Assembly: GCF_036323395.1 (NCBI RefSeq)
Contig: NZ_AP028907.1
Location: 1,260,001-1,292,000, forward strand
Source: Pyrodictium abyssi
GTDB lineage: Archaea > Thermoproteota > Thermoprotei_A > Sulfolobales > Pyrodictiaceae
Reading direction: 5' to 3'
DNA: 32,000 nucleotides
Below the pieces are notes generated by a model. The model was given only the letters and a program-made list of their open reading frames with translations, was not told the DNA's origin and searched no databases. How positions within the stretch are numbered: position 1 is the first letter of the stretch; every line of letters starts with the position of its first letter. This document shows, in pieces, positions 1,492 to 30,985 of this stretch. The position numbers and the translations under genes were made by a program.

Positions 1492-1496
1492 GCTGC

Positions 1497-10046: not shown

Positions 10047-11666
10047 ATGTTCGTACTCTTCGCCATAGCAGTAGCAGCCGCGGCAGCATTAGCCTACAAA
10101 GCTCCGGAGTACCTGCGCCAGCCAGTGTATACTGATACACGTCTCCTAGGCGCCGAGGCCGTCTACCTAGAAGACTCCGCCCCTAGGCTAGCCATTCAGC
10201 TGCCCAGCAGCCTAGCAAAAGACGTCTACAAGGTCACAGTGAGCGTCTACGGCTGGTTCCCCGACGGCAGGATAAAGCCCCTCGGCAACTACACGACAAG
10301 AAACGGGGCAGTCACACTAGACGAGACGCGGATAAGAAGCTACATAGCGGCCTGGAGGAGCCACATAGCATCAAAAGGCTCTACACCCGACTACCAGGAG
10401 CCACCGCTGATAATCCTTGCAACAATCATAGTCAAGAACAAGGGCATATACACGGTAGCCAAGACAGTGCCCATAAGGACCGACCTAGTAGCCAAGGGAG
10501 CTATGCCGACAATACGTATCCTAGACAAGCCTGTACTAACAGCCCGCTGGGACGAGCTACCCAGAGAGTTCCGCGACGCAGTACTAGGCAAAAAGCCGCC
10601 CACAACCACCAAGAGCATAGGAGCTGCTGGCACCAGTACAGGTACTCCTACGCCGCCACCAGTGATACCAATAAGCCCAATAGCATACTGGATATTCGAA
10701 GAGCAAGACCCGCACCTCCATGTACACCTGCCAGCAGCCGTAGCCCACGTACACGGCCCAGACACAGATACTGTAAACGATGTAAATCTCATTATGATGT
10801 TCGTTACAGGGTCACAGACCACGACAGAGATCTACTTTACAACTCCTATGGCGTCCTACGATGCAGGACTAGCAAGCATAACAGCATACATCGTAAGCGG
10901 CTACTCTTGGAAGATACAAAGCAGTGAAACGAATACGTGGGCAAAGGTGCATGTACTCTATATTAACAAACCTGGCAGTAGTACTGTATACCGCATTGAA
11001 GGGACAACTGGCGGTGAACTAACTTCCACTGTAGCCATCGATATGAGCAGTGGTGCATACATGGCCGTAGGTATAGTTGGCGATGCGAACTATGCAAAGT
11101 ATCGACTATATATCTGCGACTACTGTATAGGTATTGCCTGCTACTGTAAGCCGGAAGATAAGTATCTTTATGCAACGTATGTACGGCCCAGCACGCCTAT
11201 AAAGGATAAGATAGAAGTATGGTATGAAGCCGATACGTTAGGAGAAGGTTTCGCTAAGAAGGCTATCGATGCAGCATGGATCAATAATAAACCAGAATAC
11301 TTTGGCGGGTTTGACAGTGGCTTCATTATGGATTCAAGCGAGTATGCACAAAAGATTAGCACTTTACCTATATTCTCTCTCACGTTATCAGTGCCGGTGC
11401 CAGCACGTATTGGCGGGTTCCCAGCCGCTCTTGCTGAAGCCTCCGTCGGCATGGCTAGTGCATCATGGAGCTTCAGTCTTGCATCTATGTCCATAGCCCC
11501 TAAGGCCGACTACGCCGATAACGGGTATTGCGAGATATGGCCGACGCTGTTCGAGAGCCGCGCTAGATTCATGTACTATGGTGTTGAGAGCGGCCAGTAT
11601 GTCGGCGACTATCCCTTCGCTGTGCTGTACGGCGACGTATACGCGTGGACGTGGCCTTGCGGCTAA
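10047..11666 (+). CDS. Large secreted or membrane-anchored surface protein, unknown family, AT-rich gene
   Basis: The ORF is open from 9942. The hydrophobic N-terminal segment MFVLFAIAVAAAAALAY starts at ATG 10047. Thr/Pro-rich linker (TTTKSIGAAGTSTGTPTPPPVIPISP). The C-terminal ~330 aa are rich in Tyr/Ser/Thr/Ile with a Cys cluster (CDYCIGIACYC). ATG 9942 lies only about 6 nt after a TATA-like element, so it is an unlikely start. Confidence 0.7.
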   Translation: MFVLFAIAVAAAAALAYKAPEYLRQPVYTDTRLLGAEAVYLEDSAPRLAIQLPSSLAKDVYKVTVSVYGWFPDGRIKPLGNYTTRNGAVTLDETRIRSYIAAWRSHIASKGSTPDYQEPPLIILATIIVKNKGIYTVAKTVPIRTDLVAKGAMPTIRILDKPVLTARWDELPREFRDAVLGKKPPTTTKSIGAAGTSTGTPTPPPVIPISPIAYWIFEEQDPHLHVHLPAAVAHVHGPDTDTVNDVNLIMMFVTGSQTTTEIYFTTPMASYDAGLASITAYIVSGYSWKIQSSETNTWAKVHVLYINKPGSSTVYRIEGTTGGELTSTVAIDMSSGAYMAVGIVGDANYAKYRLYICDYCIGIACYCKPEDKYLYATYVRPSTPIKDKIEVWYEADTLGEGFAKKAIDAAWINNKPEYFGGFDSGFIMDSSEYAQKISTLPIFSLTLSVPVPARIGGFPAALAEASVGMASASWSFSLASMSIAPKADYADNGYCEIWPTLFESRARFMYYGVESGQYVGDYPFAVLYGDVYAWTWPCG

Positions 11667-11702
11667 CGGAGACGTATCGTGGCTGGCGGCTGCGAATGCG
11701 CA

Positions 11703-11730
11703 TCTTTTCTGCCCCGCCTTTTCTCTCCTT
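11703..11730 (+). terminator. Pyrimidine/oligo-T tracts downstream of the surface-protein gene (archaeal-type terminator candidate)
   Basis: The sequence CATCTTTTCTGCCCCGCCTTTTCTCTCC begins about 35 nt after the TAA at 11664-11666. Archaeal termination commonly uses oligo-T runs. This is a positional argument only. Confidence 0.3.
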
Positions 11731-12009
11731 ATTATGCCCCTGCTAGCTCTATTGGCTCCGTTCTATTGTCTAGACGTCTGGTCCAAGCGGCTGTACTTGA
11801 GCCCCGTATCTGTGGAAGGCGTGGCCTGCTTCTACCGCGGGGCAGGCAGGGCGCGTGGCCGGAAACTGGAAAGTGGCTTAATGCGTAACTGGTGTAGCGC
11901 GGTCTCCGCTGAGCATGTAGAGCTGGTTGCTCGCCTCCGGGGTAGTGCTGCTCGGTCTTTCTGTTATGTACCCCCGCTTCTAAAGGGGTGTCGACTTGCA
12001 TGCTGCTGT

Positions 12010-12657
12010 CTATCGTGGCTGCGTGGCTATGAACCAGGACAAGCTCGGGGCGGCTCCTGCGTGGTCATGATTTAGTACGTGTAGACGCGTACCCCCCTTT
12101 CTCGCTGCGTATGCCGCTACTTCTGCTCCTATCATTGCTCCTGCTAGTACTGGTGCTATCCTCCTCTTGTCTGGGTAGTGTTTTGCTGCGAGCTCTGCCT
12201 TTGCTAGTAGGGCTCCCACGTCTCCGATCTTTGGCTTGAGCTTGGCCTCTACGACGTAGACAGCCCGGTCGGTGACTAGTAGTAGGTCTATGTTCTCGCC
12301 GTCTAGCCTGGCGTTGCGCTGCCGGTGTAGTATCTTCTCGCCTGTCTCCCGTATCTCTTCCCGGAGGTCCTCCCAGATCATCCTCGCATAGAGGCTCTCT
12401 GTGAGGGCGCCGGGGCTCATCTCCACATTGCTGAGCCGCTTGTTTATCTCGTCGAGTTTCCCGTCGTGCTCGGAGAGCTTCTCCTCTATGGCCTCGAAGC
12501 GCTTGTCGTGCTCCAGGCTCTTGCGGCGGAGCCAGCGAAGCTCCTCGAGGATCTCCCGGAGGCCGACAAGCCCAGCCACGGCCGGCCGGAACTCCTCATC
12601 CTCCTCTAGGAGCCGTAGCAGCCGCTGCTTCAACTCCTCGTCGCTGAGGCTAGCCAT
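12010..12657 (-). CDS. Coiled-coil (DUF3782-like) + PD-(D/E)xK nuclease-fold protein
   Basis: I take ATG 12657 (MASLSDEELKQRLL...) as the start. The N-terminal half is a coiled coil. The C-terminal half has D-x(n)-E-x-K spacing (IDLLLVTDRAVYVVEAKLK), typical of restriction-endonuclease-fold proteins. The listed ORF extends to 12975, but that extension is P/R/G-rich. The C-terminus may be altered by a C6 run at 12092-12097 (see findings). Confidence 0.65.
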   Translation of the reverse strand: MASLSDEELKQRLLRLLEEDEEFRPAVAGLVGLREILEELRWLRRKSLEHDKRFEAIEEKLSEHDGKLDEINKRLSNVEMSPGALTESLYARMIWEDLREEIRETGEKILHRQRNARLDGENIDLLLVTDRAVYVVEAKLKPKIGDVGALLAKAELAAKHYPDKRRIAPVLAGAMIGAEVAAYAARKGGTRLHVLNHDHAGAAPSLSWFIATQPR

Positions 12658-12699
12658 CCCGCAGCCGCCCTCCCAGAGGGATTGCTTGTGCAGTGGACG

Positions 12700-12705
12700 T
12701 ATATA
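12700..12705 (-). promoter_or_regulatory. TATA box candidate for the DUF3782/nuclease-like gene
   Basis: TATATA lies 43-48 nt upstream of ATG 12657. This is consistent with a transcription start about 25 nt downstream of the box and a short leader. It supports the shorter start call. Confidence 0.4.
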
Positions 12706-12893
12706 GTGATGGGCTCTACGGGTTCTCCGGGAGCCTTGTAGAAGAGGGCGTAACGGCGGGCAGCCGGGCCGTCGCGTTCTACGAGCATCCGCTGGGACCA
12801 TGTTGCATCCCTGCTGGCTCCTGCTGCCAGGCCCGGGCCTTCCGCTGGGGGTCCTAGTGGGCCTGGTCTCGGCGGGTTTGTGCCCGCTGCGTG

Positions 12894-13342
12894 TCACGGG
12901 AGTACTCTGAGCCATGGCACCCGCCTGAAGTCCTCGTCGAAGGTGAGGATGGTATCGATACCATAGTGCCTGCATGTCAGAGCTATAATGGTGTCTGCAG
13001 GGAGTAGGTTGAGCCTTTTAATGGCCTCTATGACCTCCTGGAGCTGGGCCTTGTCCTCTAGGACGGTTATGCCCGCTTCTTTTACGAAGTCGCGGAGTTT
13101 GCCCATCTCCTCTTTAAACGGCTTGTAGCCGTACGCCCTTATGTAGTCTCGCAGGTCCTCTATGCGTCTTATCCCTAGGTCTCTCCATGCCTTCATCCTC
13201 ACGAGTGTGAAGAGAGCCTCGTCGAGCACTCGTAGGCTTGTGTAGAGATCATCCCCTGCTGAGACCGCGTCCCCACTATCCTGGAGTAGGGCTTGACGTC
13301 GTGCAGATAGTAGACTATGGCGTTGGTGTCTAGGAAGAGCAT
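12894..13342 (-). pseudogene. vapC: PIN-domain toxin (VapC-like), frame broken in a homopolymer
   Basis: ATG 13342 opens MLFLDTNAIVYYLHDVKPYSRIV (PIN N-terminal Asp motif), then the frame runs into a stop. The rest of the domain (VSAGDDLYTSLRVLDEALFTLV...LLPADTIIALTCRHYGIDTILTFDEDF) is in the frame of ORF 12894..13409. One extra G/C in the run at 13271-13274 joins them. Confidence 0.75.
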
Positions 13343-13739: not shown

Positions 13740-15317
13740 CTATGCTTTGAGGCTTGCTAGTGCCGCGCGGTATGAGTCTCTTAGTGCTGCTGGTGGGTAG
13801 CCTGGCCGGACTAGGTGCTCCCAGGGCCGCTCCTCTGGCGGGCCGTGGGCGTAGCTGTCGGGGTTTACTCCTAGCCTCCGGGCGGCTGTCCATAGCTGGC
13901 CTAGCCGGCCGCCGAGCCGGGCCCACTCGGCGACTAGCTCGGCTACTCTCCCGTCGCCGCGCGCGATCACTGCCTGGGCGTAGGCGTAGCGGTAGCTCAG
14001 CGCGTCTATGCTGAGCACCTTGCTCTGGGCCCGCCGGAGCACGCGGACCCGGCGCTCGTAGGTCTTTCGGTCCACTAGGGGGAGGTACTGGAAGGGCGTC
14101 CAGGGCTTCGGTACGAGGGGGTTCACTGTGACCCGTATCGCGTCGCGGGCTGGGGGCGCGCGGCGGCTGAGCCTGCGTAGCTGCTCCACGTAGTCCTCTA
14201 TGTCGCGGTCTGTCTCGCCGGGGAGTCCGAGCATGAGGTACAGCTTTATGTGCATCCTCCGGCGCCACGCCCACCCGGCTATCTCCTCGACAACGTCAAT
14301 CATTATGCACTTGCCCGTGGCGCGGCATAGCCGGGGGCTCAGGGTCTCCGGGGCCACCGTGACCACGCGCTGGCCCGCCGCGTGGAGCAGCTCTACCCGG
14401 TCCTCGTCTAGGAGGTCGGCGCGGAGACTGCCTATCGTCGCCTCTAGGCCCTCGCCCACAACCCACTCCAGCAGCTCGTCGGCGGAGGGATGGTCGAAGA
14501 AGCTGAGCGCGTAGAAGGCGACCCTCCTCACCCCGTTGGCCTCCACGCCCTGCTCTATCAGCTGCTTTAGCCGCCCGAGGCTCCGGTGCCGGGTCGGGAG
14601 GAGGAAGTGGGCCTCCATGCAGAACCTGCACATGTGGGGGCAGCCGCGGCTAGCCTCCACCATGTAGGCTTCTCCCCAGGGCTCGCCGCTGCCGGGCACC
14701 CGGAACTGAAGCGTAGAGTGGAACGCCTCGTCAAGGCTCCAGGCGACGGCCTTCCCGACGGGCTCGCTGCAGCCCGGTGCCAGGAAGCCACGGCGGCAGG
14801 CGAGCCCGTGGACCGCCTCCCGGCCGCCGGTGTAGAGCTGCTCTGCTAGCCTTGGCACGGTCTCCTCCGCTTCGCCGACGAGCACGAGGTCGGCCAGCTC
14901 CAGGGCTACGGCGGGGTTCATGCTGGGGACAGGGCCTCCGACGACGACGAGGGGGTGGTCCCCCGGCTGTCTCGCGCGGCGTAGCGCTGGCACTCCAGCC
15001 GCCTCTAGCATGCGGGCCATAGTCACGTAGTCTAGCTCGTAGCTGACGGGAACAAGCACGAGGTCGAACCTGTCGAGGGGCGTACCGGTCTCTAGGCTCC
15101 GTGGGGGCGGCTCCTCGCCCGCCATGCTGGTTGCTACGAGCCGCTCTGCCTGGACGTAGTCGATGCTGTTGAGCATGTAGTAGAGGTTCTGGTAGGCTAG
15201 GCTAGCCACAGCCGCGCTGTACACCGCTGGGTACAGCAGCGCCACGCGTAGGCAGCTGCGGCACCGCTTAGCCACGACCCCGTGCTCCCGGAGCCCCTGC
15301 AGAGTTCTCGGAGGCAT
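13740..15317 (-). CDS. Radical SAM protein with N-terminal B12-binding-like domain (TIGR03960-like, function unknown)
   Basis: 525 aa. Cluster motif SRGCPHMCRFCMEAH. The N-terminus LRVALLYPAVYSAAVASLAYQNLYYMLNS...LVVVGGP resembles the uncharacterised radical SAM family I recall as TIGR03960. Confidence 0.85.
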   Translation of the reverse strand: MPPRTLQGLREHGVVAKRCRSCLRVALLYPAVYSAAVASLAYQNLYYMLNSIDYVQAERLVATSMAGEEPPPRSLETGTPLDRFDLVLVPVSYELDYVTMARMLEAAGVPALRRARQPGDHPLVVVGGPVPSMNPAVALELADLVLVGEAEETVPRLAEQLYTGGREAVHGLACRRGFLAPGCSEPVGKAVAWSLDEAFHSTLQFRVPGSGEPWGEAYMVEASRGCPHMCRFCMEAHFLLPTRHRSLGRLKQLIEQGVEANGVRRVAFYALSFFDHPSADELLEWVVGEGLEATIGSLRADLLDEDRVELLHAAGQRVVTVAPETLSPRLCRATGKCIMIDVVEEIAGWAWRRRMHIKLYLMLGLPGETDRDIEDYVEQLRRLSRRAPPARDAIRVTVNPLVPKPWTPFQYLPLVDRKTYERRVRVLRRAQSKVLSIDALSYRYAYAQAVIARGDGRVAELVAEWARLGGRLGQLWTAARRLGVNPDSYAHGPPEERPWEHLVRPGYPPAALRDSYRAALASLKA

Positions 15318-15471: not shown

Positions 15472-16479
15472 CTACACCCGGGCCCGGGGCCCTGCTACCG
15501 GGCATAGAGGGTCGGGCGACGGTAGCTGGCCCCAGTGGAGCTGGGCCCGGGCGTAGCAGGCTCCACGGCAGCTGGCCGCTACAGGACAACCCATGCACTG
15601 TCTCGGCGTGGTGTTGATGACCCGGTTTAGTGGGTGCTTCTGTAGCTTCTCCCAGGCGCCCCGTAGGCCGTCCCGCTTCACGTCGGCGACCACGACTCCT
15701 AGCACGTCGCAGAACACTACCTTGCCGCTCGGGGTTATGTCTATGACGTTCCAGTCCCGGCAGTTGCTGCTGATTAGATGCCTTGCCCAGGGCAGGGCCC
15801 TGGTGAACGGGGCGCACCAAACTGCTACGGTTATGCCTAGCTGGCTGGCCGCTTCCTCGGCCTGCCGGAGCGCCTCTAGGAACTCGTGGCTAGAGACACT
15901 CGTCCCTGTCCCCGGGGCTCTCCCGGCCGGCATGGCTGGTATCATGGAGATGCTGGAGGCGCCTAGCTCTACTGCCGTCTTTATCGCCTCGGCAACGCGG
16001 CTGTAGTTGAGCCGGGAGACGGGAATGTTCACGTGGAAGCCTAACCCGTGGCGGCGGACGGCTTCGAGGCCCTTTAGGAACCGGGCCCAGGAGCCGGGGC
16101 CCTTGGCTTTCTCGTAGACGTCGCGGGGCCCGTCGAGGCTGGTGTACAGGAAGGTCTCTAGCCGGGCTAGCCTAGCAGCGGTATCCTCCGTCATGAGGGT
16201 CATGTTGGTGAAGATGCTCGTCTCTATGCCGTGGCTCCTGGCCGCCTCTATCAGCTCGAATATGTCCCGGCGGAGCAGGGGCTCGCCGCCGGTGAAGTTG
16301 ACGTGTTCTACTCCCAGCTCTGCTGCCTCGTCTATGATTCTGAGGCCCTCGCGTGTGGAGAGCGGCTTCTCAGCCTGGTAGCGTGCTGCGTAGCAGTATG
16401 GGCAGCGTAGGTTGCACGCCCCCGTGACTATCCATATGAGCCACTCCGGCCCCTCAGACGTCATAGCATCGCCCACCAT
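15472..16479 (-). CDS. Radical SAM / SPASM-domain protein (AhbD/NirJ/PqqE-like maturase class)
   Basis: GACNLRCPYCYA cluster motif plus GGEPLLR. C-terminal Cys-rich CMGCPVAASCRGACYARA...DPLCP, typical of SPASM/twitch auxiliary-cluster domains. Start taken at ATG 16479, preceded by AGGAGG 12 nt upstream (ATG 16464 is also possible). The ORF extension to 16683 is P/G/R-rich. Confidence 0.85.
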   Translation of the reverse strand: MVGDAMTSEGPEWLIWIVTGACNLRCPYCYAARYQAEKPLSTREGLRIIDEAAELGVEHVNFTGGEPLLRRDIFELIEAARSHGIETSIFTNMTLMTEDTAARLARLETFLYTSLDGPRDVYEKAKGPGSWARFLKGLEAVRRHGLGFHVNIPVSRLNYSRVAEAIKTAVELGASSISMIPAMPAGRAPGTGTSVSSHEFLEALRQAEEAASQLGITVAVWCAPFTRALPWARHLISSNCRDWNVIDITPSGKVVFCDVLGVVVADVKRDGLRGAWEKLQKHPLNRVINTTPRQCMGCPVAASCRGACYARAQLHWGQLPSPDPLCPVAGPRARV

Positions 16480-16691
16480 GTTGTGTGCGTGCCTCCTATG
16501 GGCCGCTGGAGCACCTCTCTGGGGCGGCCCGCTGCAGCGCCTAGGCCGCGGCCCGGCAGGCCCGCCGAGGACGGCAGGGACACACCGTGTCATTATAGTG
16601 CTCCTTGGCCCCTCGGGGCTGCCCCAGGGCAGTCCGTAGCGCGGGCTCCCCTCATAGGGCTTGCCCGGCGGGTCCGCGGCCATGGCTGGGG

Positions 16692-21333: not shown

Positions 21334-22077
21334 CTACTCGTGGCCCCACTTTATCGCCCTCGACGCTAGCGCGAGGGCCGCTACGTTCCACGCGGCAAGG
21401 ACCAGGGCTGGCAGCTGCGGCTGGTAGACGGCGTAGTAGCCTGCGAGCCCCCGTGCCAGCTCTGCCGCTGCTGCTGTAGGCGCTAAGAGTGCTACTGGCT
21501 GGAGCGGTGCTGGTAGCGCCGCGAGAGGGTAGAATACTGGCGGCAGCATTATGAGGATCATTGATATCGGGTTTGTTATAGCCGATATGTTGGTGTGCTT
21601 CCGTATCCTCATTGCTAGGGCTAGGCCTAGGAACACCGAGCACGGTAGCAGGAGGAGCCCCGCGGCCACGGCTGCTGGTATGAGGCCTAGCGCGTCTAGG
21701 GCGGCTGCTATCAGCGAGAGGACCGCTATGCTTATCGGCATGTGTACCGCGAAGTGGCTGGCCAGGAGGCCGAGCAGGTAGACACGGGGCGTCACAGGGG
21801 ACGCTATGTACATCTGGAGTTTGCCGTAGACGCGCGCCCACGCTATGTCCTGCCCTACGAGGTTTATGCCAGTGGACCAGGAGCCCGCGACTATCCATGC
21901 TATTATTATGCTCTTTACAGCCTCGGCGCCTCCCCAGGCCCAGAGTATGAGCGCGAATGATAACGCCATGAACGCGTCCTGTATCAGCCAGCCAGGCTGC
22001 CTTATCACCCACCTGCTTTCGAGCACCGCTATGCCCAACACGCTCCTAAGCGCTCCAAGCCAGCCGTGCGTGCCCAC
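21334..22077 (-). CDS. ABC-2 type transporter permease
   Basis: 247 aa with about 6 hydrophobic helices. The GTG start overlaps the stop of the upstream ABC ATPase by 1 nt (TAGTG). This is the typical ATPase-permease pair of ABC-2 exporters. Confidence 0.8.
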   Translation of the reverse strand: MGTHGWLGALRSVLGIAVLESRWVIRQPGWLIQDAFMALSFALILWAWGGAEAVKSIIIAWIVAGSWSTGINLVGQDIAWARVYGKLQMYIASPVTPRVYLLGLLASHFAVHMPISIAVLSLIAAALDALGLIPAAVAAGLLLLPCSVFLGLALAMRIRKHTNISAITNPISMILIMLPPVFYPLAALPAPLQPVALLAPTAAAAELARGLAGYYAVYQPQLPALVLAAWNVAALALASRAIKWGHE

Positions 22078-23023
22078 TAGCCCTCCACCTCCTCCCTCTG
22101 CGCCTCGTGCACGTAGTAGAGGTAGACATCCTCGAACCCCACGGGCTCCACGGTAGCCGACTCCGCCTCGGCATCTTCTGCTACTGCGTGGGCCTCACTG
22201 CGGGACCGGGTATACGCTATCACCGTGTCACCTAGGCGTATGGTCTTGGCGGCTACTGGGCTGCGGCGGGGCCGGCGGAGTACGACCCGGTAGCGGTAGG
22301 GTAGCGCCTCCCGGAGCCTCTCAGGGCTCCCCTCTGCCACCACCCTGCCTCTCGATATGAAGACGGCGTGATCTGCCAGCATCTCCGCCTCTCTCATGTC
22401 GTGGGTGGTGAACACTATGCAACGGCCCTCGGCTGCTGCGCTCCGGACGGCGTCCCATACGCTGTAGCGGCTCTCCACGTCTAGCCCCGTGGTGGGCTCG
22501 TCGAGGAAGACCACCTCGGCCTCCGTAGCCAGGGCCATGGCGGTCACTGTCTTCCTCTTCTGGCCGCCGCTGAGTCCCCAGCCACTACGGCTGCGTATCT
22601 CCCAGAGCCCTAGCTGCTCGAGCAGCTCGCTGCCGCCCGGGGGCTCCAGCCCCGGGCTACGAGGTACCACTTCACGGCCTCCAACGGCGTCCAGTTGAGG
22701 TCTATACGGGCCTCCTGCGGCACCAGGGCCACGCGGCGCCGGACCTCCCGGGCCTCCATGACCACGTCGAACCCGGCCACTAGTGCGCGGCCGCGGCTCG
22801 GCATGAGCACTGTGGAGAGCATGCCTATGGTAGTGGTCTTCCCGGCTCCGTTTGGCCCGAGGAGCACCGTTACCCTGCCCCAGGGCGAGGAGAAGCTCAC
22901 GTCCACAGCGCCCCAGACGCCCCCTGGGTACCTCTTAGCTAGGCCCTCCGCCACCACCGCGTCGCCGCCCGGCACGGCCCCGGCACCCGGCCCCGTGGGG
23001 GAGTACCCCCTCAGTCCTTCCAT
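22077..23023 (-). pseudogene. ABC transporter ATP-binding protein, split by a frameshift in a G/C homopolymer
   Basis: ORF 22610..23074 has Walker A (GPNGAGKTT) and the Q-loop (LVPQE). ORF 22077..22670 has the signature (LSGGQKRK), Walker B (VVFLDEPTTGLD) and the H-loop (TTHDM). One extra base in the C4 run at 22650-22653 (or the G5 run at 22639-22643) fuses them: ...WYLVARGLEPPGGSELLEQLGL... The start is ambiguous (GTG 23074, ATG 23023 or a downstream GTG). Confidence 0.9.
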
Positions 23024-23185
23024 ATAAGCTGGGTGTGGATAACGCTCGGCACGAGAATGTGGAGCAGGCTCCACACATCACCGTGGACTCGCCCTACACG
23101 GCTGCTGCATGGTCTCTCAGCGGGCTCATAGCCGTCATTAAGCCCTATTACCCGGTATAGGGGCTCTATGCACTAGGGCGCCTAG

Positions 23186-23428
23186 ATGCCTAGACGTACA
23201 ACAGTTATCCTTGAGGACGATGTCTACGAGAAGCTTGTAGAAGAGAGCGTAAAGAGGTACGGGACAGCAAGAGCCATATCTAGGGTGCTCAACGAGCTAC
23301 TGCGTGAAGCCTTCAGAGCTAGAAAAGAGCTCCTCGAGCTAATCTACTCGGAGAAGCTGGTCTACATAGACGAGGAAGAGTTCGAGGAGACACGAAGAGA
23401 GCTTAGCGAGAGGCTGGCAACGAGATGA
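23186..23428 (+). CDS. vapB: Ribbon-helix-helix (CopG-like) antitoxin (VapB-type)
   Basis: 80 aa. The N-terminal beta-strand-like RRTTVILEDDVYEKLVEES followed by helices fits an RHH fold. The stop overlaps the PIN gene start (ATGA at 23425-23428). Confidence 0.65.
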   Translation: MPRRTTVILEDDVYEKLVEESVKRYGTARAISRVLNELLREAFRARKELLELIYSEKLVYIDEEEFEETRRELSERLATR

Positions 23429-23853
23429 TAATCGACACTACCTATATTCTTCCGCTAGCCGGTATAGGCGTTAAGGCTGATCTCCTCCGGGCTGCTGCCG
23501 AGGGATCAGCGCGAGTGAGCCTCGATGAGCTAAAGCTCAGCATGATATCGCTGTTCGAGCTACAGGCTAAGGCAGCCAAGCTCGGGATACCGCCGGAGAG
23601 GGTCACGCGGGCAGTACGGGTCATACTGAGGAGCTTCGAGGTCGTACCCTTCTACCGCGGAGACGTCATAGAGCATGCTCACATCCTCAGAAGCTTGCTA
23701 AGAGACTACATAGACTGTGTGGTGGTCGCGACCGCGGCGGCGCTCGGCGAAGACCTGGTAACAGAGGATAGGGATATACATGCCGCGAAGAAGGATATCG
23801 AGAGCCGTTACGGCATAGACGTGCTCAGCTACCGGGACCTCGTGCCTGGCTAG
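23425..23853 (+). CDS. vapC: PIN-domain ribonuclease toxin VapC (intact)
   Basis: 142 aa. MIIDTTYILPL (N-terminal Asp), SLFELQAK (Glu), DCVVVATAAALG and LVTEDRDI (C-terminal Asp residues). Confidence 0.8.
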   Translation: MIIDTTYILPLAGIGVKADLLRAAAEGSARVSLDELKLSMISLFELQAKAAKLGIPPERVTRAVRVILRSFEVVPFYRGDVIEHAHILRSLLRDYIDCVVVATAAALGEDLVTEDRDIHAAKKDIESRYGIDVLSYRDLVPG

Positions 23854-25616: not shown

Positions 25617-28600
25617 ATGCCGCCAGAGACTGGGCAGGCAAGGCCGCGGTGTGGGCCGCCGCCAAGCCGTCTCCCGAGCCTGACTGGTACTGATGCCCGG
25701 CTCCTGGACGAGTATCTGCCGCCGCTGCCTAGCAGGCAGAGGGTCTACCAGCAGGTCGTCGAGGCCCTTAACGAGATGGAGAAGAGCCAGGACCCGGTGC
25801 TGGTCCTCCTCGTGGCCGAGTGGGGCGAGGGGAAGACGAGCATCTACAACGCCCGTGTGAAGCCCTGGCTGGAGGAGAGGGGCTGGAGGAGCCTAGAGGC
25901 CCGCGCCGCCACGGTGATGGCGCATCTAGCCTCGCTCCGGGGCCGCAGCGAGCGCGACCCAGCCTACCGGCTCATGGCCGCGCTGCTCGCGGCCGGGCTC
26001 GAGCAGGAGGGCCTGCTGGCCAGGCACGGGGCCCCCGACGCCGCGGGGAGCCTCCGCGAGTACGTGGAGCGTGTCCTCCGCAGCCTCGTCCCCCAGGGCG
26101 GCAGGCTAGTGGTCTTCATCGACGAGCTGGAGGACCTCGTGGCCTCGGCGCGGGAGGAGGAGCTAGCGGAGCTCGTCGCCGGGCTCGTCGGGATACTCAA
26201 CGGCGACGTCGAGGCCGTCTCCGCCCAGTGCCGCGGAGAGGGCTGCATGCCAGGCTCCTTCCACATTGTGGCTAGCCTCACGCCGCCAGCCTACAGCAGG
26301 CTCATGGGCCTCCGCGACTTCGCCACCGTGGCGGCGAGGCTTCGGAGGAGGATACGCAGCATCTGGATACAGCCGCTGCCACGCCGCGAGGCCTTCGCGT
26401 TCCTCGAGAGCCTTGCCCGCTACACGCTGGGCCGCGGGCTAGACGCGCTCCTCGAGGACCACAGCCTCGCCCACGCCGTCGTCTCCGGCACCCTGGGGAA
26501 CATGGGGGCGCTCGTCTCGGCGTTCCGGTACCTCGTCTCCTGGGCCCGTGGCCGCGGCGGCTGCGGCGACGGGGTAGCAGTGCTCTCGACCAGCGAGGTC
26601 CTCGAGGCGCTTCAGGGGCTCACGCTGAGCGTCGGGGGCGCCGAGCTACCCGCCCTCAACAGCGAGGCCTACGCGCGGCTAGCTGAGGGCTGGGAGGCGC
26701 GCGCCAAGCTAGCCGGGTTCGACACTGCCGTCGCCCGGAGGCTGCTCGACGAGCTGGTCGCGCGGGGCACAGTCCCCGTCGAGGAGCTCGCCGTAGCCGT
26801 CGGGGCCCGGCCGGGCGTCGTAGCCGAGATGGTGCAGGAGCTCAACGTGTACGGCGAGCAGTCGTGGCCGCGCCGCGAGCTGGGAGTGCAGAGGCTCGTC
26901 CACGAGGTCGTGGAGGCCCCGGCTGTGGAGGACGCGTTCAAGCTGCTCCGGGCCGTGGAGCCCGAGGCTGTGAAGCTTCTCCCCCAGCTCGCTGGGCGGG
27001 AGGAGCAGAGGCCGCTAGAGCAGCTGCTCGACACCCTCGTCTACCTCGACTCGGCCGGCCGGCTCGTGGTAGCCGTCCCCGCAGACGAGCGCTCGGCGGC
27101 AGACCTGGTGGCCGACGCGTCCCCGCTGGAGCTGAGCCGCGCCGAGGCTGAGAGGCTCGCAGCGCTGCTCTGGGAGGCCATCTTCTCCAGGCTACTGGGC
27201 TCCGGCGGCGCACGGGCCTACATGCTCTCCCCGAGGCTGCAACGTCTACTCTACGTGAGCCCCGAGCTGAGCTACCTGGACTTCATAGCCGACCGTGTCG
27301 AGAGGCTGCAGGTTATACGCCGCGTCTACACCGAGGCCAGCCGCGGCCACCTAGCCGCGGGGATCTCGGCGCTCCTCGCCGCCGAGGGGCTCCTCGCCGA
27401 GCCGCCAGCGCTGCAGGGCGAGGGCGTGGCCCGCGCAGAGCTGTCCCTCCAGGGCGGCGCCAGGGCCAGGGTGCTCGTCTACACCGTGCCGGGCGAGGTG
27501 ACGGCCGCGGAGGCCCGGCGGCTGGAGAGCCAGGTTATGGCTGCGCTTATGAGCGGGTGGAGGCCCCACGCTGTACTCCTCGTCCACCACGGCGGGGTCG
27601 AGCCCCAGGCGCAGCGGCTCCTAGACACGCTGGAGGGCAAGCTCTTCCTCAAGGTAGTAGACGCGCCGATAGAGTCTATGGTGTCCCGCGCCAGGCTCCA
27701 GGCCCTCGGCGTCAAGCTCGCCGACGAGGCCGGCGGCGTGGAGGAGGCCCTCCGCGCCGCGGTCGAGGTGGCGAGGAACCCGGCTACTGCCGAGGGCATG
27801 GGCTTCGACCCGCTGAGGCTCCACTCGCTGCTACGGGAGCTAGCCGAGGAGATACGGCCACGGGAGAGGCTCGAGAGGGCCCTCGAGGAGGGCGTGGACG
27901 GCGCGCCCCTGGTGATCCGGGACCCCAGGCTGGGCTACGACGTGGAGAGGCCTACCGAGCTCAGCGGCGCGCTCCGCTACTTCCTCGTAGTGCCCAGCAC
28001 CCGTGCCTCGGCCCGGGAGGCGCTCCACGCCGCCTACGAGTACGTGATGCGGTACCACCTCTACCGGGGCCCTGGCGGCGAGGGCCGGGGCCTGCTCAGC
28101 CCCGACATAGACCGGGGAGAGGCGCAGACCCTGGAGAAGTACATGCTGCTACTGGCGGCCAACGGGTTCCTCGACAAGACCAACGGCACAGTGAGGATAG
28201 ACACGCTGAGCCCGATGGAGCGCAGCGTGCTCCGCGCGCTAGAGCAGCTCGGCGCCCGTAGCCAGGAGGTCCCGGCCTCCAGGGTCTGGGAGCTGCTGGT
28301 CATGGAGGCCCGTAACCCGGGCACCCGGAGGATGCTGCTCCAGGCGCTCGTCCACCGCGGCCTCGTCTCCGCGGCCGCCTCGCGCAGGGTAGACCCCGAG
28401 CGCTCTAGGCTAAGGCTACGCGACGGCGAGGAGGCAGCGTGGCAGCTGATACGCGAGGCACGCAGCCTGCTCAGAGAGGTCGAGGAGGACCCTGAGGCCA
28501 GGGCGTGGGGCCTAGTAGTGTCGGCTAAGGCTCGTGACTACCGCGCCGGCAGCCTAGAGGAGTTCGCGCGCAAGATGAGCAGCCTCCTGGACACCGCCGA

Positions 28601-30056
28601 GGAGGCCCTAAAGGCCGGCAACGTGCTGATGGCGCTGAGGCTAGCCCGCACAGTGCTGGACACCGTGGAGTACGTCCGGGACGAGGTCCTCCGCGGCCAC
28701 GTGAAGCCGGCCGCCGCCGAGGCTAGGAGGCTACGCGGCCTCCTCGAGGAGTACGCTGAGAGGATAGAGGAGGCCCGCCACGCAGCCGAGAAGATGCTCG
28801 AGCAGCTGACCGGCCGCCCGGTGAAGCTGCGGGTCGAGGGGCTGGAGAGGCTACAGGAGGCCGTAAGGGCGATAGAGGAGGTGGAGGAGCTCAGGCTCAG
28901 CGAGAAGCAGCTAGAGGAGGAGGTCCAGCGGCTCTGGGAGGAGGCACGGCGCCGCTACCCACGCGACCCGGGGCGCCACCTGCCCTTCTACGTCGGCGGC
29001 TCGGGGCCGGCGCTGCACTTCAACTACAAGCTGTGGCTCATAGCGCGGAGGCTCGAGGAGCTCGGGCTAGCACGGCTGGGCGAGTCCGGGCTCGAGGAGG
29101 GAGACTGGCTACGCCGCACCATCCAGGCCCTGGAGGCCCTCGCCAGCGAGGCCAGGAGGCTGCTAGAGGAGAGCGCCGGGCTGCGCCGCCGCGCGGAGAG
29201 GCTGGCTGAGCGGCTGAGGAGGCTCGGCGTAGAAGCCCCGGCGCCCCAGAGCATTGTGCTGCAAGGGCTCAGCGCGCCCGAAGAGCTCGGCCTCGACGAG
29301 GCTGAGCAGCTGCTGCAGGAGGCCCGGCGCCAGCTAGAGGAGGGCCGGCGGCCACTCCTCGAGCTCGAGGAGCAGGTCGACCGGCTCCTAGGCGAGCTCG
29401 AGCAGCTAGAGGAGCTAGCCGCGGAGGCTGAGAGCTGGATACACGGGCTAGAGGAGGCGGCCCGCCACGCCCGAGAGGCCGGGCTGCCCGTCGGCCAGAG
29501 GCTCCGCGAGGCCCTAGAGGACCTGGCCCTGGCGCTAGACCAGGCCCAGGCGATGAAGGGCAAGGCCAGGGCAGTGCTGCAGCAGCCCGGCAGGCTCCTC
29601 GACGCTCTCCGGGACGCGCGCAGCCTCGTGGAGAGCGCGCTCACGCTGCTACGCGACAGCCTGGAGAGGAGCAAGAGGATACACGCGGAGGCCGTCGCCG
29701 AGGCTGAGAGGCAGCGCCAGGCCCTAGAGGCCGAGGCCCAGGCGCTCCGCGAGGCCCTAGAAAGGGCTAGAGCAGGGGCACCACAGCCGCCTAGGAGCAG
29801 CGACCCGTTCGCCGCCGTCGCCGGGCTCCACGAGTACATGGAGAAGCTCCGCCGCATGGCCGCGGAGGCCGGGGTGCTGTCGCAGACCGAGCTGGAGGCC
29901 TACAAGGTGGTGGCGCTGGAGCGGAGGAGGCGCGGCGAGCTGCTGCTGAGGGAGGCTGCTGAGCTGGTGGCGGAGAGGCTCGGCATAGGCCCCGAGGAGG
30001 CTCGCCGCATACTCATATCGCTTATAGAGAAGGAGGTGCTCGAGCCGAGGCTCTAG
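25617..30056 (+). CDS. Giant (1479 aa) P-loop NTPase with wHTH-like segments and a long C-terminal coiled coil; no characterised family recognised
   Basis: Uninterrupted 4.4-kb ORF. Walker A AEWGEGKTS (nt 25815-25841). Walker B LVVFIDELEDL (nt 26106-26138). Lid-like IWIQPLPRREAFAFLESL. wHTH-like aa 865-917 and aa 1420-1479. Aa ~935-1395 are E/R/L/A-rich helical repeats. Confidence 0.85.
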   Translation: MPPETGQARPRCGPPPSRLPSLTGTDARLLDEYLPPLPSRQRVYQQVVEALNEMEKSQDPVLVLLVAEWGEGKTSIYNARVKPWLEERGWRSLEARAATVMAHLASLRGRSERDPAYRLMAALLAAGLEQEGLLARHGAPDAAGSLREYVERVLRSLVPQGGRLVVFIDELEDLVASAREEELAELVAGLVGILNGDVEAVSAQCRGEGCMPGSFHIVASLTPPAYSRLMGLRDFATVAARLRRRIRSIWIQPLPRREAFAFLESLARYTLGRGLDALLEDHSLAHAVVSGTLGNMGALVSAFRYLVSWARGRGGCGDGVAVLSTSEVLEALQGLTLSVGGAELPALNSEAYARLAEGWEARAKLAGFDTAVARRLLDELVARGTVPVEELAVAVGARPGVVAEMVQELNVYGEQSWPRRELGVQRLVHEVVEAPAVEDAFKLLRAVEPEAVKLLPQLAGREEQRPLEQLLDTLVYLDSAGRLVVAVPADERSAADLVADASPLELSRAEAERLAALLWEAIFSRLLGSGGARAYMLSPRLQRLLYVSPELSYLDFIADRVERLQVIRRVYTEASRGHLAAGISALLAAEGLLAEPPALQGEGVARAELSLQGGARARVLVYTVPGEVTAAEARRLESQVMAALMSGWRPHAVLLVHHGGVEPQAQRLLDTLEGKLFLKVVDAPIESMVSRARLQALGVKLADEAGGVEEALRAAVEVARNPATAEGMGFDPLRLHSLLRELAEEIRPRERLERALEEGVDGAPLVIRDPRLGYDVERPTELSGALRYFLVVPSTRASAREALHAAYEYVMRYHLYRGPGGEGRGLLSPDIDRGEAQTLEKYMLLLAANGFLDKTNGTVRIDTLSPMERSVLRALEQLGARSQEVPASRVWELLVMEARNPGTRRMLLQALVHRGLVSAAASRRVDPERSRLRLRDGEEAAWQLIREARSLLREVEEDPEARAWGLVVSAKARDYRAGSLEEFARKMSSLLDTAEEALKAGNVLMALRLARTVLDTVEYVRDEVLRGHVKPAAAEARRLRGLLEEYAERIEEARHAAEKMLEQLTGRPVKLRVEGLERLQEAVRAIEEVEELRLSEKQLEEEVQRLWEEARRRYPRDPGRHLPFYVGGSGPALHFNYKLWLIARRLEELGLARLGESGLEEGDWLRRTIQALEALASEARRLLEESAGLRRRAERLAERLRRLGVEAPAPQSIVLQGLSAPEELGLDEAEQLLQEARRQLEEGRRPLLELEEQVDRLLGELEQLEELAAEAESWIHGLEEAARHAREAGLPVGQRLREALEDLALALDQAQAMKGKARAVLQQPGRLLDALRDARSLVESALTLLRDSLERSKRIHAEAVAEAERQRQALEAEAQALREALERARAGAPQPPRSSDPFAAVAGLHEYMEKLRRMAAEAGVLSQTELEAYKVVALERRRRGELLLREAAELVAERLGIGPEEARRILISLIEKEVLEPRL

Positions 30057-30280
30057 CCCGCCGGGCACCCACGCCCCGGCCCCTCTTTCTCCACCGCTAC
30101 CGCGTACACCCTCGGCTTGCTTGGTGTTGGCACTGGGCGTCCCGGGGGCGAGTAGGTTCGGGTGCGTGTAGCTAAGGCTATAGCTTAGCCGCCCCGTCTC
30201 CCGGGGCTACTAGGGTGTATCCCCCGCCCCTGTTCTCCCAGCAGCCCACCCGAGGGCAGCGAGACCAGAGCGCTGGGGCC

Positions 30281-30985
30281 ATGATAGTGTTGAGGAGCCG
30301 CCGGCTCGACGAGTACCTTAGAGAGCTAGGCGCCGCGGTTAGGAGCAAGCAGGTAGACGTCGAGGCGCTCGTGCGCCGCATAGTCGAGGAGGCTGTCCGG
30401 GAGGCTGGCTGCGGCGCCAGCGGCTCCCTGGACCCGGGGCTGCTGGAGAGGCTTGAGCGGGTAGAGCAGCGGCTCGAGAGGATAGAGCGGAGGCTAGAGC
30501 AGCTGGAGCGGCGCGGCGCCAGCCTCTCCAGGAGGGATGTCGACGAGCTGGCCCGCGCTATAGCCTCGGCCGTGGCGGCTGCTGTCAGGGCCCAGGCGGG
30601 GCACCAGCGTGGCCAGAGGGATGAACCGCGGTGGCTACGCGCTATCGTGGAGCGGCTACGGGGCCGGGGCTACGTTGTGCTGCACGAGCTGCCGCCCGAC
30701 GTGCGGGATGGCTTCGACCCGGAGGAGGCCAGGCGCCGGGGACTAGTAGTGGCCAGCCTCGGGGGCCAGACCGTGGTTATGACGAGGCAGGGGCTGCGAG
30801 ACTTCATGGAGAAGCTGCGGGGGCTCCGGGCGAGCGACGAGTACGAGGCAGAGACCCAGCTGGGGCGCTACAAGCTGCTGTTCCGGCTCCTCCGGGAGGA
30901 GGGCCTCGTCTACTACGCCGGGCCCAGCAGGGGCTGGGTGGTCCAGGGCCAGCTGGAGAAGCTAGCCCATGAACACCTTGTATAG
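30281..30985 (+). CDS. Coiled-coil protein with basic C-terminal (wHTH-like?) domain, unknown function
   Basis: Start taken at ATG 30281 (MIVLRSRRLDEYLRELG...). Coiled-coil core LERLERVEQRLERIERRLEQLERRG. C-terminal WLRAIVERLRGRGYVVLHELP...LFRLLREEGLVYYAG. Same strand as the giant NTPase, 224 nt downstream. The 3' end overlaps the convergent NUDIX gene by 24 nt. Confidence 0.6.
   Translation: MIVLRSRRLDEYLRELGAAVRSKQVDVEALVRRIVEEAVREAGCGASGSLDPGLLERLERVEQRLERIERRLEQLERRGASLSRRDVDELARAIASAVAAAVRAQAGHQRGQRDEPRWLRAIVERLRGRGYVVLHELPPDVRDGFDPEEARRRGLVVASLGGQTVVMTRQGLRDFMEKLRGLRASDEYEAETQLGRYKLLFRLLREEGLVYYAGPSRGWVVQGQLEKLAHEHLV

Follow-up and report, generated by a model that had tools for sequence, protein, structure and literature searches.

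The longest open reading frame of the window, by which we mean the whole 32-kb stretch of Pyrodictium abyssi DNA analysed here, is confirmed as a real gene. Its 1479-residue product (the giant protein, or giant, below) appears from its sequence and modelled fold to be a DNA-binding ATPase, a genuine conserved orphan in the window. Outside Pyrodictiaceae and Ignicoccus, relatives of this gene nearly always lie in clusters with divergent HerA, NurA, TGT and ArcS-C1 genes. We lean towards the view that the family supplies the large ATPase to a DNA modification-restriction ('capture') system, Dpd/BREX-like and apparently undescribed, and that the Pyrodictium copy is an unlinked derivative.

Architecture and extent of the giant family

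A homology search matched the giant at 100% to a P. abyssi hypothetical protein and recovered 22 more full-length homologues. The whole length is conserved across these 23 sequences (42-100% identity), with K73/T74 and D169/E170 invariant. The ATPase motifs of the P. abyssi copy are intact, and purifying selection acts on the gene. AlphaFold models, confident at pLDDT 84.5 (N-terminal part) and 89.7 (C-terminal part), predict the following order: an Orc1/Cdc6–STAND-type AAA+ module, an α/β region, two wHTHs, an arm of ~480 aa and a C-terminal HTH. The features, with the evidence for each, are:

25617..30056, + strand: giant ORF, multidomain AAA+/wHTH/helical-arm protein, 1479 aa (ORF list, translation)
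25617..25727, + strand: N-terminal extension, aa 1-37 (conserved C12 and RLPSLTG motif)
25728..26366, + strand: AAA+ α/β base, aa 38-250 (Walker A/B, AlphaFold, Foldseek)
26370..26552, + strand: AAA+ lid, aa 252-312 (Foldseek alignment to the Cdc6/ORC lid)
26589..26918, + strand: winged-helix region after the lid, aa 325-434 (helix/strand pattern in the model)
26925..27896, + strand: central α/β region, aa 437-760 (DSSP of the model, invariant columns)
27951..28421, + strand: helical linker and two wHTH domains, aa 779-935 (H-H-H-β-β in both models)
28428..29876, + strand: helical arm, aa 938-1420 (AlphaFold pLDDT 89.7)
28812..29099, + strand: conserved insert or 'apex' subdomain in the arm, aa 1066-1161 (invariant columns, model)
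29883..30053, + strand: C-terminal three-helix HTH, aa 1423-1479 (helices in the model)
30281..30985, + strand: 234-aa coiled-coil ORF (own 23-cluster family; syntenic neighbour at the level of Pyrodictium)

In the N-terminal extension, the homologue alignment shows conservation of 90% or more at C12, L19, P20, S21 and G24, and the Thermococcus homologue retains RLPS.TG despite 25% overall identity. The N-terminal ~430 aa form the AAA+ module (base, lid, winged helix) according to AlphaFold and Foldseek. Its base carries Walker A (AEWGEGKTS, aa 67-75, nt 25815-25841) and Walker B (VVFIDELEDL, aa 165-174, nt 26109-26138); W69-G-E-G-K-T-S75 and D169-E170 are invariant among homologues, and the likewise invariant R241/R244/R245 ahead of β5 may provide an arginine finger. 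The modelled lid consists of helices 256-271, 282-292 and 296-310, the first of which starts within QPLPRREAFAFLESL (aa 252-266), and includes a G294-N-M-G297-A-L motif. Foldseek matched the module to Orc1/Cdc6 with probability 1.00 (2qby_B, E 8.7e-7; 1fnn, TM 0.60) in alignments of ~400-470 columns, that is, base, lid and WH, and, with the same probability, to PAB2304 (2qen) and CED-4. With its Walker A/B motifs, base, lid and winged helix, the giant belongs at fold level to the Orc1/Cdc6–STAND-type AAA+ ATPases; the P-loop of family members is faintly matched by nSTAND_NTPase5 and AAA_16. Archaeal Orc1/Cdc6 initiators and Arch_ATPase proteins (PF01637, PAB2304) have this fold in common with the giant's first ~430 aa, whereas the giant differs from them by ~1050 additional residues and by its genomic context. 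It was rejected as a replication initiator, since the TIGR02928 model, with its cut-off of 181.3 bits, gives it 19 bits over aa 32-186 only, and since its 1479 aa compare with ~400 aa for an initiator.

A Pfam search of 20 family members gave no match to the central α/β region, and no fold was identified for it. The region contains a βββ-α-β-α-β-α unit (aa 598-705) with invariant R606, R618, P650 and H651, whose topology may perhaps resemble a restriction-endonuclease fold. TrmB, HTH_45, ScpB and GntR (Pfam) match the wHTH region of family members weakly. The E/R/L/A-rich part that follows had been described as a single coiled coil of SMC-arm length; this description needs correcting, since its AlphaFold helices measure 63 residues at most, fold back on each other and are interrupted at ~1066-1161. 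The interrupting insert is modelled as mixed α/β, with short strands and helices, and has W1107, G1119, P1123-F-Y and N1136-Y-K as invariant positions in the homologue alignment, a motif retained in the Thermococcus homologue. No PDB structure matched the arm (best E 0.075), and a PDB sequence-profile search returned coiled-coil noise only. In some relatives the gene is split into two ORFs at the arm linker near aa 1200-1215. The terminal HTH comprises modelled helices 1423-1439, 1444-1455 and 1459-1471, with L1443, L1469 and the EPRL terminus conserved.

An earlier note on this DNA had proposed an NTP-driven protein with several wHTHs, a helical arm and an ORC/STAND-type P-loop module, and the Foldseek matches bear this out. 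Its coordinates, the longest-ORF status and a 224-nt gap to the next gene proved accurate, and every motif it quoted was located: both Walker motifs, QPLPRREAFAFLESL, the wHTH-like segment (aa 867-917), the C-terminal ELLLREAAELVAERLG...EKEVL (aa 1441-1475) and, in the small downstream ORF, LERLERVEQRLERIERRLEQLE. It had also set the protein apart from several ATPase classes, and we agree. An SMC/Rad50/MukB-type ABC ATPase does not fit, as both Walker motifs are N-terminal and at most 100 aa apart, SMC_N and Rad50 models gave no match and the helices are short; matches to LmuB and JetC (13-24 bits) are confined to helical regions. KAP NTPases have transmembrane helices set into the P-loop domain; their model (PF07693) is matched at only 38 of 293 positions near Walker A (21 bits), and the giant's base is predicted to be contiguous and soluble. 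For Avs/STAND defence NTPases, PADLOC Avs models found no match, and the models of the giant contain no TPR/WD or other repeat sensor and no effector domain.

With a profile of aa 1-940, 219 representative clusters were collected at E<=1e-3, of which 192 also pass E<=1e-10. A length of 1400-1560 aa is nearly universal among them, and no Pfam, NCBIfam or PADLOC model corresponds to the family. The window protein aligns with P0059 of Thermococcus argininiproducens over 1374 positions (25% identity, E 3e-73). The named records recovered are scattered over a single Thermococcus species, Thermoproteales, Desulfurococcales and an Elusimicrobiota MAG, a patchiness that favours the system reading. Plasmid and phage searches found no giant homologue, and defence HMMs matched neither the giant nor NurA; these results speak against a modification-restriction system.

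Neighbourhood of the giant in Pyrodictium

The giant is flanked by genes for a PLP decarboxylase, an acylphosphatase, a NUDIX hydrolase, pyruvate:ferredoxin oxidoreductase subunits and an ABC transporter, in an order syntenic with P. occultum. The immediate surroundings are not the accessory-like neighbourhood that had been suggested. The window does contain one PIN/VapBC-like pair and one truncated Arch_ATPase.

Within Pyrodictiaceae the giant is single-copy, vertical and highly conserved (83% and 65% identity). HMMs for HerA, NurA, TGT and ArcS-C1 matched no ORF of the 32-kb window, and these genes are likewise absent beside the giant in Pyrodictium, Hyperthermus, Pyrolobus-like and Ignicoccus loci. 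The P. abyssi giant belongs to the family, its locus does not belong to the cluster, and the gene is vertically inherited but physically unlinked from these partners. Because the partners are absent from the window, they were invisible to the earlier reader, and the system reading is transferred to the window from homologues at 20-28% identity. Vertical inheritance and fixed Pyrodictium synteny suit a housekeeping gene better than mobile defence.

The ORF downstream of the giant spans 30215..30985; its ATG at 30281 gives the 234-aa protein and leaves the 224-nt gap after the giant's stop. The two had been proposed to form a dedicated two-gene system, the small protein being an obligate partner, for instance an arm adaptor or regulator. 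Both genes lie on the same strand a short distance apart, both proteins have heptad-rich helices, and the pair is kept in the window and in L028 and L030, three Pyrodictium genomes or contigs in all, within a fixed order acylphosphatase–giant–small–NUDIX. Among the loci surveyed, the pair was found nowhere else. The small-protein family counts 23 clusters from Pyrodictium, Pyrofollis and metagenome contigs, and its HMM detected no copy beside the giant in the other surveyed loci, more distant giants included, or within 8-10 kb flanks of Hyperthermus-like giants (64% identity). No giant lies within 10 kb of the homologue in Pyrofollis japonicus (50% identity), and the ORFs that follow the giant elsewhere (242 aa in L001, 284 aa in L006) have no similarity to the small protein, which itself gave no Pfam or PDB match above coiled-coil noise. 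Absence beside homologues in other genomes was the outcome that the earlier note itself had named as fatal, and the phyletic pattern brings the two-gene system close to refutation; we give it very little credence. The small gene is a genus-level neighbour, not a conserved partner, and the proposed partnership should be dropped.

Conserved gene context in other lineages

For the counts of gene context, redundant loci and the clades of Pyrodictiaceae and Ignicoccus were set aside; most of the remaining loci are metagenome contigs of unknown taxonomy, and partners were sought within 5 kb. A divergent HerA lies directly upstream of the giant in all 43 of 43 loci. NurA and a divergent TGT paralogue are each found within 5 kb in 26 of 26 loci, and a stand-alone ArcS-C1 domain in 23 of 26. 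Gene order differs from locus to locus; in T. argininiproducens the operon reads HerA, giant, NurA, DUF5591, TGT, DUF6884. DUF5591 is the ArcS C1 catalytic core, which occurs stand-alone in DpdA-carrying viruses (PMC10516641). DUF6884 is distantly akin to YaaA/DUF328 (PMC11701544), the latter being the DpdC family (PMC12839542); the Thermococcus protein is DpdC-like, with weak DpdC matches only (E about 2e-4). Within the window protein's own clade the contexts form a transition series. Relatives of ~42-50% identity to the window protein have a NurA-like gene within 1 kb downstream of the giant, directly adjacent except in L006, and in a 53% relative a Vut_1 gene accompanies a divergent HerA–NurA pair 2-6 kb upstream. 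Vut_1 is the family of the YhhQ preQ0 transporter (PMC5372724). A neighbour-joining tree, rough since the sequences are very divergent, places the clades of this series nested among operon-type lineages.

To judge from their scores, the cluster partners are extra paralogues and not housekeeping genes: HerA reaches 95-102 bits where the cut-off is 800, TGT 82-121 bits where that for TgtA is 350, and ArcS-C1 41-70 bits where it is 440. Their catalytic residues are kept, namely PCx3KPYx2Sx2H in ArcS-C1, DSGGF and CxCPxC in TGT, D/E/D/H in NurA and the Walker motifs in HerA. The cluster TGT scores higher on archaeal tRNA TgtA than on DpdA (22-60 bits, cut-off 200), a point against DNA modification.

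In archaea the canonical complex for end resection is HerA–NurA (PMC3326311, PMC5715905), and the giant could be a housekeeping genome-maintenance factor that loads or scaffolds such a machine, plays a structural part like that of Rad50 or organises the chromosome. On this view the connection with TGT/ArcS-C1 would stem from tRNA or nucleotide metabolism and not from self/non-self marking, and the Pyrodictium copy would show the core function. The single-copy, vertical and conserved state of the gene in Pyrodictiaceae agrees with this, as do the lack of plasmid or phage copies and the orc1/cdc6, cdvABC, DNA ligase or RNase HII genes near some loci. The likeness to the HerA–NurA–Mre11–Rad50 operon lies in HerA and NurA families standing beside a large helical-arm ATPase. 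However, the giant is AAA+ and not ABC-type, without Zn hook or C-terminal ABC half, neither mre11 nor rad50 was found in the clusters, and the linked HerA and NurA are divergent paralogues, HerA at ~100 bits falling far below the curated cut-off for repair HerA. The patchy spread, with one Thermococcus species and one bacterial MAG among named records, is atypical for core repair, and a near-obligate extra TGT/ArcS-C1 with intact catalytic motifs has no obvious place in end resection. We consider the housekeeping explanation unlikely.

Judged by the gene context of its relatives, the function best supported for the giant lies in defence or nucleic-acid handling. This part of the earlier proposal stands.

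Comparison with known systems and a possible mechanism

BrxC consists of AAA+, wHTH, an α+β domain, wHTH and a coiled coil of 250-500 aa with an apex subdomain (PMC12839542), and the secondary-structure order in the giant's models parallels this description. BRC systems from the same work also join a large ORC/Cdc6-type, BrxC-like ATPase with HerA and TGT, for which a 7-deazaguanine self-mark was proposed. The giant might thus be a highly divergent true BrxC/PglY (DUF6079/DUF499) homologue and its cluster an offshoot of BRC. Family-level searches did not find such a relationship: among 20 members there was no Pfam DUF499/DUF6079 match at E<=0.1, PADLOC BrxC and PglY models gave none, and E. 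coli HS BrxC aligned with the family profile at an hhalign probability of 0.3. In the clusters no PglZ, BrxB-like STAND, DUF4007/BrxA-like or GNAT gene was detected; ArcS-C1 and NurA are there instead, and NurA is not a BRC component. True BrxC homology is in our estimation rather improbable. The earlier note's analogy with BrxC appears apt for the architecture as modelled, and these searches gave no sequence relationship. Membership in BREX or BRC was likewise rejected, as PglZ, PglX and BrxB/BrxA-like genes were found neither in the window nor in the relatives' clusters.

The HerA/FtsK 'capture' systems with Orc/Cdc6-family AAA+ proteins (PMC10853773) offer a similar proposed logic, in which AAA+/wHTH localises on DNA and HerA feeds a nuclease. 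The nucleases of those systems have the REase fold and their Orc/Cdc6 protein carries an inactive REase insertion, whereas the giant clusters have NurA, a 1400-1560-aa ATPase with a long helical arm and, nearly always, TGT/ArcS-C1; the window itself has no linked HerA or nuclease. Dpd (DpdA/B/C and DpdD-K; PMC10164549) shares with the clusters a TGT-family transglycosylase beside an ATPase, DNA-processing enzymes, modification-plus-restriction logic and, in Thermococcus, a YaaA/DUF328-like gene. It differs in that the cluster TGT is TgtA-derived and far under the DpdA cut-off, that ParB-like DpdB and the DpdD-K helicases are missing from the clusters, where HerA–NurA would be the restriction module, and that ArcS-C1 suggests an archaeosine-type or lysine-adduct product, not dADG. 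Dpd membership was rejected on these TGT scores, the lack of a ParB-like gene and the weak DUF6884 match, with no Dpd component in the window.

The analysis establishes the gene, its modelled fold, its place in the family and the linkage of genes in relatives; DNA modification, restriction or defence, and any activity of the Pyrodictium copy are inferred. In the modification-restriction system that we favour, the giant would be a large ATP-driven DNA-binding scaffold. A base-modification module of divergent, DpdA-like TGT and stand-alone ArcS-C1, sometimes with a YaaA/DpdC-like DUF6884 protein, would put a 7-deazaguanine derivative into host DNA as a mark. The giant would use its AAA+ module and wHTHs to assemble on DNA, which it would read or scan. 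DpdA requires an ATPase partner (PMC10164549), and the giant possibly provides ATPase activity for DNA transglycosylation as DpdB does for DpdA. It would engage HerA–NurA, a translocase of hexameric type and the nuclease of the machine, so that unmarked DNA is threaded and degraded. Partners of the Pyrodictium copy may be encoded elsewhere in the genome, or the copy may have been co-opted to a chromosomal role. A more specific version, which we advance tentatively and think doubtful in its full form, is a mainly archaeal, occasionally bacterial system in which TGT and ArcS-C1, with or without the DpdC-like protein, write an archaeosine-type 7-deazaguanine mark into the chromosome, a BrxC-like scaffold directs a dedicated HerA–NurA at unmarked DNA, and the giant of Pyrodictiaceae and Ignicoccus escaped the operon and was domesticated as a stand-alone, chromosomal DNA-binding ATPase with a new role.

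For the window the practical result is more modest, a conserved orphan ATPase. Should the system exist, cellular archaea would join bacteria and viruses in marking DNA with 7-deazaguanine, by an archaeal chemistry (TgtA-derived transglycosylase and ArcS-C1), and HerA–NurA, which is known to date as a repair machine, would serve as a restriction arm. There would be a role open to testing for a family of about 200 sequence clusters, annotated as 'hypothetical proteins' of 1400-1560 aa. The steps from full operon through NurA only to solitary gene would be a natural series in which to ask how a defence scaffold turns into a vertically inherited chromosomal protein. The idea can be tested now, as T. 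argininiproducens grows in culture and dPreQ0/dG+ can be measured by an established LC-MS/MS method.

The giant gene and its predicted architecture

The giant and the divergent gene next to it begin close together:

25617..30056, + strand: giant ORF, 1479 aa, the longest of the window
25611, - strand: mechanical GTG start of a divergent PLP-decarboxylase ORF, 5 nt from the giant ATG (25617)

A homologue search returned a P. abyssi hypothetical protein identical to the giant (100%), and the full length is conserved across 22 further full-length homologues (42-83% identity) and one at 25%. Because homologues conserve the whole length, the giant is no chance ORF of GC-rich DNA. All motifs quoted in the earlier note were found in the relative positions assigned to them, and Walker A (W69-S75) and Walker B (D169, E170) are invariant in the homologue alignment. 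That its motifs are intact and its sequence strongly conserved argues for a functional Pyrodictium giant. As regards the divergent ORF, the MfnA model aligns from its residue 67, and the real decarboxylase start therefore probably lies about 60 codons downstream. Such a start would leave a divergent promoter region of about 180 nt between the two genes.

The giant was modelled in two overlapping parts, each with the family alignment, and both models are confident (mean pLDDT 84.5 for aa 1-940 and 89.7 for aa 861-1479). In Foldseek searches against PDB, the first ~430 aa resemble Orc1/Cdc6 (2qby_B, E 8.7e-7; 1fnn, TM 0.60 over target) and also match the Pyrococcus Arch_ATPase PAB2304 (2qen) and CED-4; the best 50 matches are AAA+ proteins exclusively. 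As modelled, this part is an AAA+ base with lid and winged helix. Family models agree weakly with the structure: KAP_NTPase scores 21 bits, over the P-loop, TIGR02928 scores 19 bits against a cut-off of 181, and about half of the family members give faint nSTAND_NTPase5 and AAA_16 matches. An α/β region follows (aa ~437-760), in which no recognisable family was found and R606, R618, P650 and H651 are invariant; it leads through a helical linker to two predicted wHTHs (aa ~836-935).

The SMC-like single coiled coil proposed for the E/R/L/A-rich region is not borne out by the predicted structure. No helix there exceeds 63 residues, the helices fold back on one another, and a conserved mixed α/β insert (aa ~1066-1161, with invariant P1123-F-Y and N1136-Y-K) breaks them up. 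The protein is predicted to end in a three-helix HTH. For the C-terminal 619 aa Foldseek found no structural match in PDB (best E 0.075). Against Pfam, NCBIfam and PADLOC, the giant and the small ORF yielded marginal P-loop or coiled-coil matches at most, and no model in these collections covers the giant family. PDB searches by sequence and profile brought up nothing but coiled coils, designed or natural, and these were taken as compositional noise.

Extent of the family and distribution of the small ORF

A word-indexed search recovered at least 23 homologous proteins, to which a broadened alignment added none. When 1.84 billion representatives were searched exhaustively by HMMER, a profile built on aa 1-940 gave 219 clusters at E<=1e-3, of which 192 reach E<=1e-10 and 129 reach E<=1e-30. 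With few exceptions their length is 1400-1560 aa, and the family boundary is therefore sharp. Contig scans located 75 loci (19 genome and 56 metagenome), most with full-length homologues to which the family HMM aligns from about position 10 to about 1465. Named members come from Ignicoccus pacificus, a Pyrolobus MAG, Desulfurococcales and Thermoproteales MAGs, Thermococcus argininiproducens and an Elusimicrobiota MAG. The window giant and the T. argininiproducens protein share 25% identity over 1374 positions (E 3e-73), with signature motifs common throughout.

One subclade has the giant split over two consecutive ORFs, the first of about 1160-1190 aa and the second about 300 aa long (loci L026, L048, L050, L052, L055, L056, L062 and L070; in the last, 5968-9450 and 9449-10336). 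The break falls in the same linker each time, near window aa 1200-1215, and finding it in at least eight loci points to genuine fission of the gene or to a frameshift that is conserved. It also implies that the last three long helices and the HTH form a separable module.

The earlier note had combined the giant with the small ORF into an undescribed two-gene system.

30281..30985, + strand: small ORF, 234 aa from the ATG at 30281, starting 224 nt past the giant stop codon

The distribution of the small gene speaks against this pairing. Its family is narrow (23 clusters from Pyrodictium, Pyrofollis and metagenome contigs), with no Pfam or PDB match other than coiled-coil noise. It follows the giant in P. 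abyssi, P. occultum and the contig locus L028 (giant 83% identical), always in the order acylphosphatase, giant, small ORF, NUDIX, the last on the opposite strand. In the neighbourhood survey of homologues, the small-family HMM found no copy beside the giant in any other locus, including the 64%-identity Hyperthermus-like relatives (8-10 kb of flank), and by pairwise BLAST the ORFs after the giant in other clades have no similarity to the small ORF. Pyrofollis japonicus, in turn, carries the small gene with no giant within 10 kb. We therefore regard the adjacency as genus-level synteny, not a conserved functional pair, and abandon the two-gene system.

Between the two genes lies an inverted repeat (GCTAAG/CTTAGC) around a TATA-like CTATAG, AGCTAAGGCTATAGCTTAGC (window 30170-30189), about 30 nt upstream of a GTG at 30215. 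By its sequence, this element could be a promoter serving the small gene; that would speak against transcription of the two genes as one unit.

Partner genes of the relatives

Clustering of ORFs within four genes of each giant, with naming by Pfam and NCBIfam, revealed four recurrent partner families:

HerA: PF01935; 95-102 bits against the repair-HerA cut-off of 800
NurA: PF09376; no NCBIfam match
TGT superfamily: PF01702; 82-121 bits against the TgtA cut-off of 350, and 22-60 bits on DpdA models
DUF5591 (ArcS-C1): PF17884; 41-70 bits against the ArcS cut-off of 440

All four are extra divergent paralogues, not housekeeping genes. Their catalytic motifs are conserved: PCx3KPYx2Sx2H in ArcS-C1, DSGGF and the CxCPxC zinc site in TGT, the D/E/D/H residues in NurA and the Walker motifs in HerA. 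Linkage was counted over non-redundant loci outside the Pyrodictiaceae and Ignicoccus clades, most context loci being metagenome contigs without taxonomy. HerA abuts the giant upstream in all 43 of 43 such loci; within 5 kb of the giant, NurA and TGT are each present in 26/26 and ArcS-C1 in 23/26. Gene order differs between these loci, which argues for selected linkage over inherited synteny. The T. argininiproducens operon, for example, reads HerA, giant (1561 aa), NurA, DUF5591, TGT, DUF6884.

DUF5591 provides archaeosine synthase with its catalytic C1 core, and viruses whose DNA is modified by means of DpdA carry it stand-alone (PMC10516641). YaaA/DUF328 proteins are distant relatives of DUF6884 (PMC11701544), and DpdC belongs to DUF328 (PMC12839542). 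Insertion of preQ0 into DNA by DpdA needs the ATPase DpdB (PMC10164549). From the gene linkage of the relatives we infer that the family acts in an R-M-like system. In it, TGT and ArcS-C1, alone or together with a DpdC-like protein, would place a 7-deazaguanine derivative in DNA as a mark. The giant would assemble on DNA as an AAA+/wHTH scaffold, may furnish the ATPase that transglycosylation needs, and would engage HerA–NurA, whereupon unmarked DNA would be degraded. For the window giant, this functional reading is carried over from homologues at 20-28% identity.

The main rival reading is a housekeeping repair or organiser factor. A patchy distribution that takes in Thermococcus and a bacterium and a near-obligate extra TGT/ArcS-C1 pair count against such a role; vertical inheritance in Pyrodictiaceae is in its favour, as is the lack of plasmid or phage copies (no tblastn match in either collection).

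The R-M-like arrangement has parallels among known systems. HerA/FtsK 'capture' systems are coupled to Orc/Cdc6 ATPases (PMC10853773), a theme that the giant family matches, and a BREX-related capture system joins a BrxC-like ATPase, HerA and TGT (PMC12839542), again a matching theme. As to the analogy to BrxC/PglY drawn in the earlier note, the predicted domain order of the giant parallels the description of BrxC in PMC12839542, but no sequence relationship to BrxC, DUF6079 or DUF499 was found (hhalign to E. coli BrxC gave no signal, a weak negative as the template was a single sequence). Because of this, and because PglZ, BrxB-like and BrxA-like genes are absent from the clusters, we do not file the giant as BrxC. 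We rate the family system as a relative in kind of the Dpd, BREX-related and HerA capture systems. A literature search on HerA or NurA with TGT, archaeosine or deazaguanine found no paper with this arrangement, which may have been described elsewhere.

Further genes accompany the giant at some loci. A ~450-aa protein directly follows it in L040, L041, L044, L046 and L083 (cluster C7; e.g. L044 9325-10692), and a ~185-aa protein occurs in L026, L048, L062 and L070 (cluster C12; e.g. L070 10329-10889); neither has a Pfam, NCBIfam or PADLOC match. In the Elusimicrobiota MAG (L089) what comes after the NurA–HerA–giant trio, within the available flank, is an AAA_15/AAA_21 (OLD/ABC-like) ATPase at 7492-8820 in place of TGT/ArcS-C1. 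This locus may represent a variant whose accessory module differs.

The Pyrodictium giant and its surroundings

No HerA, TGT or ArcS-C1 was found beside the giant in the window or in the Pyrodictium, Hyperthermus, Pyrolobus-like and Ignicoccus loci. Within the clade of the window giant the context is graded. Relatives ~42-50% identical to it carry a NurA-like gene downstream, no more than 1 kb away and, except in L006, directly adjacent. A 53% relative (L001, giant at 8001-12446) carries a divergent HerA–NurA pair (500-3241) 5 kb upstream, and HerA, TGT and ArcS-C1 are present in L026, from a Desulfurococcales MAG. In a midpoint-rooted NJ tree, a rough one, the Pyrodictiaceae and Ignicoccus clades are nested among operon-type lineages, and the solitary state therefore looks derived, as an indication. 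The Pyrodictium giant may work with unlinked partners or may have a new chromosomal role.

Between the HerA–NurA pair and the giant of L001 lies a Vut_1 (PF02592) gene (5272-6006), of the same family as the preQ0 transporter YhhQ (PMC5372724). A ~220-aa membrane protein with a weak ECF S-component match (cluster C5) occurs at seven operon-type loci. Together they hint at import of a 7-deazaguanine precursor.

The neighbourhood of the window giant, earlier described as accessory-like, turned out to be mostly metabolic: PLP decarboxylase, acylphosphatase, NUDIX hydrolase, pyruvate:ferredoxin oxidoreductase subunits, aldehyde:ferredoxin oxidoreductase (AFOR), radical SAM enzymes and an ABC transporter. 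Four toxin-antitoxin pairs had been counted in the window; one toxin-antitoxin-like pair was confirmed. A second Arch_ATPase is indeed present, but as a fragment.

43-879, + strand: Arch_ATPase (PF01637) fragment, matching the C-terminal half of the model only
8345-9799, 13740-15317 and 15472-16683, - strand: three radical SAM genes, two with B12-binding domains
9942-11666: 574-aa ORF in the low-G+C region, without Pfam match
12010-12975, - strand: 321-aa ORF in the low-G+C region, without Pfam match
22077-22670, - strand: ABC-transporter ATPase ORF, 197 aa, with C-terminal ABC_tran only (model positions 87-137)
22610-23074, - strand: overlapping 154-aa ORF just upstream of the ABC ATPase ORF
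23186-23853, + strand: PIN-domain gene with small upstream ORF, VapBC-like

Over window 10001-12000 the G+C content is 0.52 against about 0.65 elsewhere, and AT skew is strongly positive over 9-11 kb; the low-G+C region may be foreign DNA. The ABC ATPase gene may be frameshifted or mis-started.
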